A stretch of 64,000 nt of DNA from positions 1 through 64,000 of the IMG/VR virus record IMGVR_UViG_3300028886_001681; one strand, written 5' to 3'. The position numbers and the translations under genes are program-made. The notes under the pieces are model-generated. The model made no database searches. It was not told the DNA's origin and saw nothing but the letters and a program-made list of their open reading frames with translations. Source of the DNA: a virus (lineage: Duplodnaviria > Caudoviricetes). Of this stretch, positions 3,214 to 22,324 are shown piece by piece (the stretch's first letter is position 1; each line of letters opens with the position of its first letter).

Positions 3214-3765
3214 ATGAACCCTAGAAATGTAGAGTACGCCAATTACGACTCTTACCTAGAAAGCCTAATCAAAAGTCTTTCCAATTTTTGTGACAAATGT
3301 CCATTGAAGCCCAAAATTCATGTGGTGAAGGATTTAGGAAAGATTTACATCCGCTACAATGAAAAAGAGATTGAGATTGTGATTGATGTCACGAAGGACA
3401 AGAAGAAGGTAATCGGCGACTTGAAGAAAGAAATCGAAAAAGATTATCCGATTGTATACGAAAAGACCACGAGGGTGCCTAGCGCGGACGAGGTTCGTGA
3501 GATTTTAGGGAAGGGTAAGACTTTGGAAGAGGCCTTGAACACTACGAAAACCGTCTATAAGAAACTTTACAAAATAGAGCGCGTTCACGACCGATATAAC
3601 GAGTTCGATGTGCTTTCAATCAAGGACGGAGAAATGTATAAATGCAAGTGCAAGATTCCGTTGACCGCTTTGTTGGAGGACTTGAAGCATTTGGGAAAGG
3701 ATTCGGAGGCGGTCGAGCATTTGAGCCTTTTGTATAAGTTGAATTCTGTCGGAGGTTCTAAATGA
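3214..3765 (+). CDS. Hypothetical protein
   Basis: 183-aa ORF with SD GGAGG. Confidence 0.75.
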   Translation: MNPRNVEYANYDSYLESLIKSLSNFCDKCPLKPKIHVVKDLGKIYIRYNEKEIEIVIDVTKDKKKVIGDLKKEIEKDYPIVYEKTTRVPSADEVREILGKGKTLEEALNTTKTVYKKLYKIERVHDRYNEFDVLSIKDGEMYKCKCKIPLTALLEDLKHLGKDSEAVEHLSLLYKLNSVGGSK

Positions 3766-3872
3766 GAGTGGATTGGTGCGAAAGCGAATTTAAGATGAAA
3801 ATTTACCTTTTTTTAATTAAGCGAGAATTCGGACGAAGGTTGCTTCTAGCGTTGAGCGAATAAATTCGAGGG

Positions 3873-20627: not shown

Positions 20628-21223
20628 AAATGAAAAGAATTTTTGGATTGACTTTAGGAGTCACCATGTGTTGCTTAATCACGCTCTCATTCTTTGTCGG
20701 AAAAAACATGGGACGAAGGATTGCGGTGAATTTTGAGCCTAAGAATTTGAACGAAAGCGAAAGGCACGAATATGAGTTCTTGCCGAAGGAAATGTCGAAC
20801 TACATATGCGACTTGTGCACGGAAGTGGGATTGGACTCCGACTTGGCGGTGGCCATATTGATGGTCGAGAATCCCAAATTCGACACGGATGCGGTGAACA
20901 GAAACATCAACGGAACCTTGGACTGCGGATTGTTTCAACTAAACGACAGATACTTGTGGACTGTGTTCAAGGAGAGTTATTGGTTCGAGAACTTGGAGTT
21001 AGACCCCTTCAATTGGAAGCACAGTTGCTATTTGGCGATACACCACATTGGATTCTTGCAGAAGAAGTTGAAGGTTCGCAACGAGGTCATCATGGCGTAC
21101 AATTGCGGAATGGGGGCGGTGATGAGGAATGAAGTGCCTGAAAGGACGAAAGTGTATTTGGCGAAGGTGAACAACAATATTTATCTTTTGAAGCAGAACA
21201 AAGCGAAGATGATAAATTTTTGA
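20624..21223 (+). CDS. Lytic transglycosylase (SLT) with an N-terminal membrane anchor
   Basis: AILMVEN catalytic Glu, DCGLFQLN and MAYNCG motifs. Confidence 0.88.
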   Translation: MKMKRIFGLTLGVTMCCLITLSFFVGKNMGRRIAVNFEPKNLNESERHEYEFLPKEMSNYICDLCTEVGLDSDLAVAILMVENPKFDTDAVNRNINGTLDCGLFQLNDRYLWTVFKESYWFENLELDPFNWKHSCYLAIHHIGFLQKKLKVRNEVIMAYNCGMGAVMRNEVPERTKVYLAKVNNNIYLLKQNKAKMINF

Positions 21224-21243
21224 AAAATTTTTCAAAAAAAGAC

Positions 21244-21272
21244 TTGACAAAAATTTAATTGTGTGTTATAGT
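21244..21272 (+). promoter_or_regulatory. Strong sigma70-type promoter of the RNA operon
   Basis: TTGACA-17-TGT-TATAGT with an A/T-rich UP region. Confidence 0.85.
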
Positions 21273-21304
21273 GCAATCATTGAATGAGTTGTGACGCAAC
21301 TCGC

Positions 21305-21378
21305 GGTTCCTTAGCCTAACGGTTTTAGGGCATCCGACTTTCTATCGGAGGACGAAGGTTCGACTCCTTCAGGAACTA
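21305..21378 (+). tRNA. tRNA, anticodon TTC (Glu) by position, with atypical U37
   Basis: Acceptor GGTTCCT/AGGAACT, anticodon stem TCCGA/TCGGA with loop CTTTCTA, T-arm GAAGG-TTCGACT-CCTTC. Confidence 0.8.
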
Positions 21379-21390
21379 ATACGAAGCACA

Positions 21391-21508
21391 CTCGGAGAGG
21401 CGTTTCCGCGCCATCGGAATCTCCGAGAGAGCGGTTGGAAGAGGGTTCAACCTTATCTGTGGATTTGGTTGTTAAAACAAGACCGTTAGGTTGCGGAGTA
21501 TAACCCTC
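21391..21508 (+). ncRNA. Two structured RNA modules between the tRNAs, the first with a predicted pseudoknot
   Basis: CTCGGAGA/TCTCCGAG, GAGGGTT/AACCCTC and CAACCT/AGGTTG stems; no ORF. Confidence 0.55.
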
Positions 21509-21516
21509 AAAATTTT

Positions 21517-21588
21517 GTCTCCTTCGTCTAGTGGTTAGGACTTGCGGTTCTCATCCGCACAACAGCAGTTCGACTCTGCTAGGAGATA
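21517..21588 (+). tRNA. tRNA-Glu(CTC)
   Basis: Acceptor GTCTCCT/AGGAGAT, anticodon arm TGCGG-TTCTCAT-CCGCA, T-arm AGCAG-TTCGACT-CTGCT. Confidence 0.92.
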
Positions 21589-21590
21589 AA

Positions 21591-21907
21591 AGAGAACATG
21601 AACCTTTTAGGAAACGAATAAGTCAAGTTCCGATTAGGTTTGAATTCCGCAAGTTCTCACTTTTTCTTTTTCGCGGAAACATCATTGGCGGAACAACAAT
21701 CCGTCAAGGAAGACTGTAAGAAAGGAAGCGCGAGTCCCATAAGTCGCGCCTAAAGCGGGTGAAGTGTTGCGGAGCCGTCGCCTTTCTTGGAGGTGAACGA
21801 TAAGAAATCCCTTCAATCAACCTCCTAAACCGAGATTGTTGGGCGGTCATATTTAGAGTTTGCGAGCAACTTGTTCAGAACCGATTACAAGAAGGAAACT
21901 CGCGTAA
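21591..21907 (+). ncRNA. Structured non-coding RNA region of unknown family
   Basis: Stems GAGAAC/GTTCTC, TTGGCGGA/TCCGTCAA, AAGAAAGG/CCTTTCTT, GCGCGA/TCGCGC, GGAGGT/ACCTCC and GCGAG/CTCGC; no credible ORF. Confidence 0.55.
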
Positions 21908-21911
21908 TTTT

Positions 21912-21992
21912 GGGACATCCTATGGCAGAACCGAGACTAAAGCCTACAACGGAAAGTTTCGGACAAAGCGAGTTCAATCCTCGTATGTTCCA
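21912..21992 (+). ncRNA. RNA resembling the tmRNA tRNA-like domain (TLD), without an mRNA-like domain
   Basis: Acceptor GGGACAT/ATGTTCC with G3.U70 and A73; 12-nt stemless D-loop; 8-bp CCGAGACT/AGTTTCGG stem; T-arm GCGAG-TTCAATC-CTCGT. Confidence 0.6.
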
Positions 21993-21997
21993 ATTTG

Positions 21998-22082
21998 GAG
22001 TTCGGTGCTCATTGAAAGCCCACGAATCGCGTTTTCCCCTCCCACCCACGCGGTTCAAGGCGAGCGCCGAACTCTTTTTTTT
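21998..22082 (+). ncRNA. Long hairpin RNA with a C-rich apical loop, ending in a U-tract (also the operon terminator)
   Basis: GAGTTCGGTGCTC/GAGCGCCGAACTC, TTGAA/TTCAA and CGCG-TTTTCCCCTCCCACCCA-CGCG, then T8. Confidence 0.6.
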
Positions 22083-22110
22083 CAACTATTTATGATTTGA
22101 GAGGTTGAAG

Positions 22111-22272
22111 TTGGACATATTGATTCATTTCAAAGACGGATTTGAGATTGAGGTTCGCGATGTTGTCGATAGAAAGGTGAACTCTGAAATTTATAAAGTC
22201 GTGACACAATGCGGTTGCGTCCAAGAATTCGTGACTGAAAAAATTGAGTATGTCAAAACCCTCAAAGAATAA
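22111..22272 (+). CDS. Hypothetical small protein (53 aa, TTG start)
   Basis: SD GAGG; CAACTAT at 22083-22089. Confidence 0.5.
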   Translation: MDILIHFKDGFEIEVRDVVDRKVNSEIYKVVTQCGCVQEFVTEKIEYVKTLKE

Positions 22273-22295
22273 ATCGAAAAAATTTGTAAAATTCC

Positions 22296-22324
22296 TTGAC
22301 ATTTTTTCTAGTCCGCGCTATCAT
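22296..22324 (+). promoter_or_regulatory. Sigma70-type promoter
   Basis: TTGACA-17-TATCAT. Confidence 0.75.

Follow-up and report, generated by a model that had tools for sequence, protein, structure and literature searches.

What does a large phage keep in a stretch of its genome that holds no credible gene and is bracketed by a promoter and a terminator? The question is raised by about 840 nt found in the first 64 kb of the 160-kb IMG/VR record of a large uncultured phage (the window, 64,000 nucleotides, is the whole stretch of DNA analyzed here). The original prediction held that tRNAs and compact structured RNAs are strung there in one unit. This is supported by the data, except for the kinship and the mutual pairing assigned to two of the modules, B and C. 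The locus is probably a host-transcribed phage tRNA operon, in which the tRNA borders would release several structured RNAs kept by selection. The genetic and structural part of this reading is held with high confidence; any one named functional role for the modules is unlikely to be the right one.

The gene-free stretch reads as a single transcription unit, running from the promoter to the end hairpin and its U-run (Table 1). The strong sigma-70 promoter initially proposed is the best match of this type in its neighbourhood, and a TTGACA-17-TACTAT promoter heads the related arrays of loci L003 and L027. The final U-tract is found where expected, next to a terminal hairpin of high folding score. 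The two tRNAs predicted at 21305 and 21517 are both tRNA-Glu by ARAGORN and Rfam. Homologs of the UUC one reside in L012, L013, L019, L027 and L028, and no tRNA beyond these two is detected by ARAGORN in the whole 160-kb record. Low-threshold extras returned by the relaxed, intron and mitochondrial modes of the program (for example, a tRNA-Ser with a 158-nt intron) were judged spurious, as was a permuted tmRNA called at the 80% threshold on the opposite strand, across the tRNAs. The 496 nt located 3' of the second tRNA fold with a z-score of -3.5, beating 100 out of 100 shuffles. ORFs between promoter and terminator are short, start with TTG or GTG, overlap the RNAs and match no PHROG family, in line with the predicted absence of a credible ORF.

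Table 1. Features of the array. Positions refer to the window; z is the folding score.
Feature	Position	Strand	Details
Sigma-70-type promoter, extended -10	21244-21272	+	TTGACA-17-TATAGT, TG extension, 11/12 consensus positions
tRNA-Glu (UUC)	21305-21378	+	ARAGORN; Rfam tRNA RF00005, 60.9 bits
Module A	21387-21441	+	outer stem 21391-21398/21420-21427; inner stem 21399-21402/21409-21412; z -2.5
Module B	21440-21508	+	7-bp closing stem 21441-21447/21502-21508 around local hairpin 21448-21452/21467-21471; MFE z -2.3
tRNA-Glu (CUC)	21516-21589	+	ARAGORN; Rfam RF00005, 53 bits (21517-21588)
Module C	21591-21680	+	nested stems, invariant 14-nt apical segment, then U-rich spacer
D1	21682-21790	+	hairpin H1, then three-way junction; 76-78% DNA identity to 10 loci
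D2	21791-21907	+	hairpin H5 and crossing helices; present in 12 loci
tRNA-like element	21912-21992	+	acceptor 21912-21918/21985-21991, discriminator A 21992, T-arm 21968-21984; MFE fold z -2.9
Hairpin E (intrinsic terminator)	21998-22082	+	long stem, 15-nt C-rich loop at about 22033-22047; z -7.2
Conserved motif with AACTATTT	22083-22093	+	directly 3' of the U-run; conserved after the terminator in relatives

At the gathering score, Rfam finds only tRNA in the window, and likewise at E<=10 in the 21100-22300 interval, so that novelty with respect to Rfam stands. Group I introns, RNase P RNA, T-boxes, known self-cleaving ribozymes and riboswitches gave no Rfam match in the same interval (E<=10). 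Six related loci yielded tRNAs only, at gathering and permissive thresholds (E<=1 in L003). Blastn of the 21200-22100 segment against 50,697 phage records gave no match, and no relatives of the array were found by tblastn among cultured phages.

Relatives were reached through the 390-aa protein encoded downstream (42 metagenomic relatives), and through pattern scans on the first conserved block; a search for related loci with the upstream transglycosylase found none. Viral contigs were also scanned with exact or degenerate patterns for the tRNA-like element and for D. Some of these scans gave no match, one gave a true match, L014, and four matches (L021-L024) showing no similarity were discarded as due to chance. 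Thirteen distinct related tRNA arrays were thus collected (L003, L010, L012, L013, L014, L016, L017, L019, L020, L027, L028, L029 and partial ones). The phages carrying them are from gut and rumen, and the name of one record points to a Hadza gut sample. All share one layout: a TTGACA-type promoter heads three to eight tRNAs (Leu, Glu, Asn, Arg, Ile/Met, Lys, Gln) along with non-tRNA stretches, and a terminator is followed by a small ORF, the same in each case. The flanking protein is about 52-57% identical on array contigs, whereas parts of the non-coding DNA reach 72-78% identity. L002 and L015 are closer relatives by flanking gene, yet have no array at the same site. The array in the window is pared down, with two tRNAs only, and the tRNA-like element in the place of tRNA-Gln. 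The presence and absence of modules from locus to locus shows that they are cassettes reshuffled among tRNAs.

Conservation and covariation show that most of the predicted non-tRNA RNAs of the array are under selection for structure. Module A has homologs in L012, L013, L016, L020 and L029. Its 4-bp inner stem exists in three paired forms of entirely different sequence, and changes in the outer stem are compensatory in L016. The apical loop (21404-21408) and the 3' internal loop (21415-21419) are complementary in all cases, and a compact pseudoknot, made by bases which barely vary, is possible. Module B is found in L012, L013, L014, L016, L020 and L029; its closing stem swaps A-U for U-A, and its hairpin stem is fully rewritten around a conserved loop. 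The AACCT/AGGTT inner stem attributed to B is contradicted by these homologs, which keep the local hairpin through entirely different stem sequences. As the local hairpin is conserved, and not the long-range inner stem, B and C do not share an architecture, and the kinship proposed for the two modules is to be dropped. The complementarity noticed between B and C amounts to 7 contiguous bases (about 0.24 matches of this size are expected by chance for two 69-nt pieces, by our own arithmetic), close to what chance would produce, and is absent from the homologs of B as from those of C. Neither module has a T-arm or is matched by the tRNA model (Rfam E<=10, ARAGORN). The sole homolog of module C resides in L027 (2186-2275, 72% identity), and keeps the inner stem by a different sequence; taken by itself, C does not fold better than its shuffles (z -1.5). 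The partition of the region into modules therefore holds for A, B, D and E, which recur in related arrays with compensatory changes, and less firmly for C.

Region D (21682-21907) was taken as a single entity. The region is real, and features compensatory changes, but is made up by two separable conserved domains which are found apart in some relatives, with an overall DNA identity to relatives of 72-78%. In D1, hairpin H1 (21682-21692 with 21700-21710, 11 bp, 7-nt loop) is followed by a junction formed by P1 (21718-21725/21781-21788), P2 (21728-21733/21744-21749) and P3 (21770-21772/21778-21780), the junction strands being long and strongly conserved (alignments A6 and A9). Counted together in alignment A6, the D1 helices and the first D2 hairpin make up 31 pairs, with 98.6% of cells paired and 12 out of 31 pairs compensatory; none of 500 shuffles scored as high, and sliding the partners by 1-3 columns lowered pairing to 36-57%. 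In D2, hairpin H5 (21789-21794 with 21820-21825) carries a conserved loop (21800-21809), and a short helix (21845-21847/21880-21882) is crossed by H7 (21862-21866/21899-21903) in a pseudoknot topology. The sequence of the crossing helix differs in almost every lineage; a purine-rich strand (21889-21898) is conserved. In alignment A10, 16 pairs of D2 show 91.6% of cells paired, 10 of them being compensatory; again no shuffle out of 500 was as high, and slid partners paired in 30-50% of cells. Homologs are few (9-12 sequences from about six distinct lineages), and shuffle controls can be exceeded by related sequences devoid of structure; the slid-partner controls argue against this here. In our reading, the crossing helices of D2 recall a P3/P7-type topology, with no room for a P4-P6 domain.

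D2 occurs without D1 in L010 and L027, and 0-130 nt of extra hairpins separate the two domains in other loci. About 60 unpaired positions of D are invariant. In relatives, D1 begins 3-4 nt after an Ile2/Met-type tRNA, and a few bases separate the end of D2 from tRNA-Gln, unless further modules come first. As both ends adjoin tRNAs, ordinary tRNA processing would set the limits of D. D1 was sought in 185,579 bacterial and archaeal species, with one genome per species, and no copy, prophage or bacterial, was found there. Some other hypotheses on D were discarded. A pseudoknot between the strand 5' of P1 and the P2 loop is broken in L029, and nothing in it covaries. No frame for a tag peptide is conserved, and relatives hit a stop within two codons of the sole frame in the window. 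Finally, D does not look like an intron, the tRNAs flanking it being intact in relatives, and has no Rfam match.

The tRNA-like element has a fully paired acceptor stem (7/7) with G3:U70 and A73, a 5/5 T-stem with a canonical T-loop, and a 12-nt D-region which has GG but no stem; the anticodon arm is replaced by a helix of 8 bp closed by a 16-nt loop. An acceptor plus T-arm descriptor, run on both strands of the 160-kb genome, selects this element and the two tRNAs only, and in the loci of relatives essentially tRNAs only; the element is therefore tRNA-derived, and not a chance fold. It is not called by ARAGORN (default and 90% threshold), and has no Rfam tRNA or tmRNA match at E<=10. The lack of both an anticodon arm and a match to the model indicates that it is not a decoding tRNA. 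No homologue was found in any related locus or by pattern scan of viral contigs; in relatives the same position is occupied by tRNA-Gln(UUG). The set G3:U70 plus A73 is the established identity set of AlaRS, and alanylation of the element is thus a reasonable prediction. G3:U70, A73 and the T-arm are shared with tRNA-Ala, from which the element differs for the missing anticodon arm.

Hairpin E is the terminator of the unit, with a U-run of eight U (22075-22082). Its loop contains CCUCC, the core of the anti-Shine-Dalgarno sequence. E was found in nine distinct related arrays, with a 20-26 bp stem different each time and a 15-nt loop nearly invariant; in the genome of origin the loop occurs once. 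In L014, L016, L020, L027 and L028 a copy of E without U-run lies upstream of tRNA-Gln, and in L014, L016 and L020 a second E, with a variant loop, follows tRNA-Gln and is the terminator. A plain terminator needs no conserved loop, which argues that E is more than that. Sites complementary to the loop in the phage genome, some of them at ribosome-binding sites, are no commoner than expected by chance. Outside the window, the ribosome-binding sites of three phage genes (87145, 82754 and 67880, minus strand) have 9-10 contiguous complementary bases and are candidate targets, their count being at chance level. Pairing of the E loop with phage ribosome-binding sites, for which neither site counts nor covariation speak, was rejected, as was pairing with D1, where nothing covaries.

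The motif which directly follows the U-run in relatives as in the window may be a candidate phage-specific promoter for the next gene, or a terminator-promoter junction. About 12 sites of the genome have a T-run directly before AACTAT(TT), where shuffles predict about 2; among others, these are at 22075-22093 in the window, 23573 (-), 71348, 116620 and 125433.

Related arrays host further elements. An abnormal tRNA of 80-83 nt, with UAU in the anticodon loop, a D-arm that is reduced or missing and a long variable region, was detected in L003 (2980-3062) and, as homologs, in L010, L012, L014, L016, L017, L020 and L029. It regularly precedes D1, is absent from the window, and is missed by ARAGORN, though the L003 copy scores 33.5 bits in Rfam. 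In L015, where the protein of the flanking gene is 79% identical, an 81-nt tRNA-like gene (225-305) has a malformed anticodon region and is labelled "tRNA-???" by ARAGORN; odd tRNA-like genes hence recur in this phage group. tRNA-Gln(UUG) is unusual in L016 (1441-1532), L020 (4152-4243) and L028 (2739-2830), where it reaches 92 nt and has a long extra arm. In L003 the array terminator is followed by a conserved non-coding stretch (3580-3865, about 285 nt) which has a terminator of its own. This stretch is found in eight relatives (homologs in L010, L012, L014, L016, L020, L028 and L029), and is missing from the window, where the small ORF is directly next. A conserved module of about 63 nt, made of nested stems, resides in L020 (3952-4014), with homologs in L013, L014, L027 and L028, and is also absent from the window. 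Genes of the HNH_3 and GIY-YIG homing-endonuclease type and of the TnpB/IS605 type are found in or beside arrays (L013 2573-2995, L027 2807-3349, L010 2892-4229), which suggests that the islands are hot spots of mobile-element insertion. The tRNA sets of relatives are dominated by Leu-UAA, Arg-UCU, Gln-UUG, Glu-UUC and Lys-UUU. The wobble U of these tRNAs is normally hypermodified, and they are the usual prey of anticodon nucleases; such sets would fit a counter-defence role of the islands.

Alternative explanations of the locus were weighed against these data. The modules could be processing or stability elements which guide or block RNases for tRNA maturation, E being a mere terminator, and none of them acting in trans. 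In favor of this hypothesis, every module lies against a tRNA, most arrays close with E, the hairpins of A, B and C are short, and structured spacers are common in tRNA operons. Nevertheless we regard it as unlikely, because terminators and spacers have no need for an invariant loop of 15 nt or for the many invariant unpaired positions of D, because five relatives carry E upstream of tRNA-Gln without U-run, and because D1 and D2 persist beside different neighbouring tRNAs. A possible, though doubtful, alternative is that the array is decaying in a lineage whose tRNA island is being lost, with module C and the tRNA-like element as functionless relics of tRNA genes. The low number of tRNAs in comparison with relatives, the tRNA-like element sitting without homologs in the place of tRNA-Gln, the folding of C, no better than that of shuffles, and the lack of an array at the same site in the closer relatives L002 and L015 are what decay would leave. 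Scattered damage, however, would hardly result in a perfect acceptor stem and T-arm joined to a new, perfect 8-bp helix; the invariant apical segment of C is common to L027, and selection on A, B, D and E is clear.

The tRNA-like element was originally likened to the tRNA-like domain of tmRNA. The tRNA-like fold with G3:U70 and T-arm is there, as are A73, the stemless D-region with GG and the long helix in lieu of the anticodon arm, all features of that domain; the remainder of a tmRNA is not. The element might be a stand-alone, alanylated mimic of the domain, interfering with trans-translation or exploiting it. This is very improbable, since neither the Rfam tmRNA model (RF00023) nor the ARAGORN tmRNA search matches it, neither a message-like domain nor pseudoknots belong to it, D contains no conserved tag frame, and the element is known from a single sequence. 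The phage genome encodes neither SmpB nor a CCA-adding enzyme which would indicate a dedicated partner; lacking a message domain and a phage SmpB, the element is not a tmRNA. That the region hides small protein genes is hardly credible. ORFs of 62-74 codons occur on both strands, but these have GTG or TTG starts, overlap tRNAs and hairpins and belong to no PHROG family, and homologs differ by paired stem changes and by indels of non-triplet length.

In the tRNA operon that we favor, host RNA polymerase would transcribe the unit from the sigma-70-type promoter, the only element that may point to early expression. The tRNAs would serve as punctuation marks for A, B, C, D1-D2, the tRNA-like element and E. 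Cuts at the tRNA borders, made by RNase P and by the enzymes that process tRNA 3' ends, would free the modules as separate stable RNAs, as for the T4 RNAC and RNAD species. Such a release is suggested by the position of the modules, which sit directly against tRNA ends both here and in relatives. D1-D2, about 225 nt with many invariant unpaired bases and a pseudoknot, might adopt a tertiary fold as an RNA or RNA-protein particle, and act on tRNA or on the translation apparatus. Freed as 3' trailer, E would present its anti-Shine-Dalgarno-like loop to G-rich sequences. AlaRS, or enzymes directed at tRNAs, would take the tRNA-like element as a substrate or be decoyed by it. Roles linked to tRNA or to translation are favored by the constant company of the modules with tRNAs, and by the precedents of T4 RNAC and RNAD, of GOLLD and ROOL, and of the E. 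coli leuZ-operon trailer. More specifically, and with quite low probability, D1-D2 could be a new class of pseudoknotted phage RNA, cut out of tRNA transcripts, which acts on tRNAs or ribosomes during infection either as a ribozyme or as the RNA core of a particle. In this lineage it would be accompanied by an alanine-charged, non-decoding minihelix in place of tRNA-Gln; the minihelix might for example mislead defences that target tRNAs, or donate its amino acid outside the ribosome.

The likeness drawn to large non-coding RNAs lying beside phage tRNAs is apt (PMC12286853, PMC3014915). RNAC and RNAD are small non-tRNA RNAs of unknown role from the tRNA region of T4 (PMC3014915, PMC9697503). 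Also known as species 1 and 2 stable RNAs, they reside within a phage tRNA cluster and are transcribed with it, as the modules described here would be. The two systems have no sequence similarity by blastn, the array comprises at least six module types, and D is larger and pseudoknotted; RNAC and RNAD are classed as late, whereas the array has a host-type promoter. GOLLD (RF01998) and ROOL (RF03087) are often found near phage tRNA islands (PMC12286853). Like D, they are RNAs of phage or prophage tRNA islands with conserved unpaired bases, pseudoknots and no known protein partner or function (PMC12286853), but they span roughly 580 to over 800 nt, against about 225-365 nt for D, and D gives no sign of multimeric cages. 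Their covariance models match nothing in the window or in related arrays. The 3' external transcribed spacer of the E. coli glyW-cysT-leuZ operon is a tRNA-operon trailer acting as regulatory RNA (10.1101/2021.04.25.441314). As E, it comprises the 3' end of a tRNA operon, terminator included, and it pairs in trans (10.1101/2021.04.25.441314). The trailer uses a linear seed, E would use a C-rich hairpin loop, and candidate sites for E are at chance level.

Non-tRNA RNAs among phage tRNAs are thus an RNA kind already known, and by comparison the families found here are new to Rfam. At least four of the RNA families of this locus are supported by covariation and absent from Rfam 15, the newness being judged against this release and not against the 10,006 candidates of the 2023 viral structured-RNA catalogue. 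To our knowledge, T4 RNAC and RNAD, GOLLD and ROOL have gone for decades without an assigned function. Phage tRNA islands are increasingly seen as a counter to host tRNA-directed defences, and as tools for the takeover of translation. The alanine-identity element offers a simple biochemical test, and the relatives provide a natural experiment, with D2 devoid of D1, E as terminator or internal element, and either tRNA-Gln or a tRNA-like stand-in at the same place. This modularity would make the RNAs tractable for expression, probing and deletion studies.
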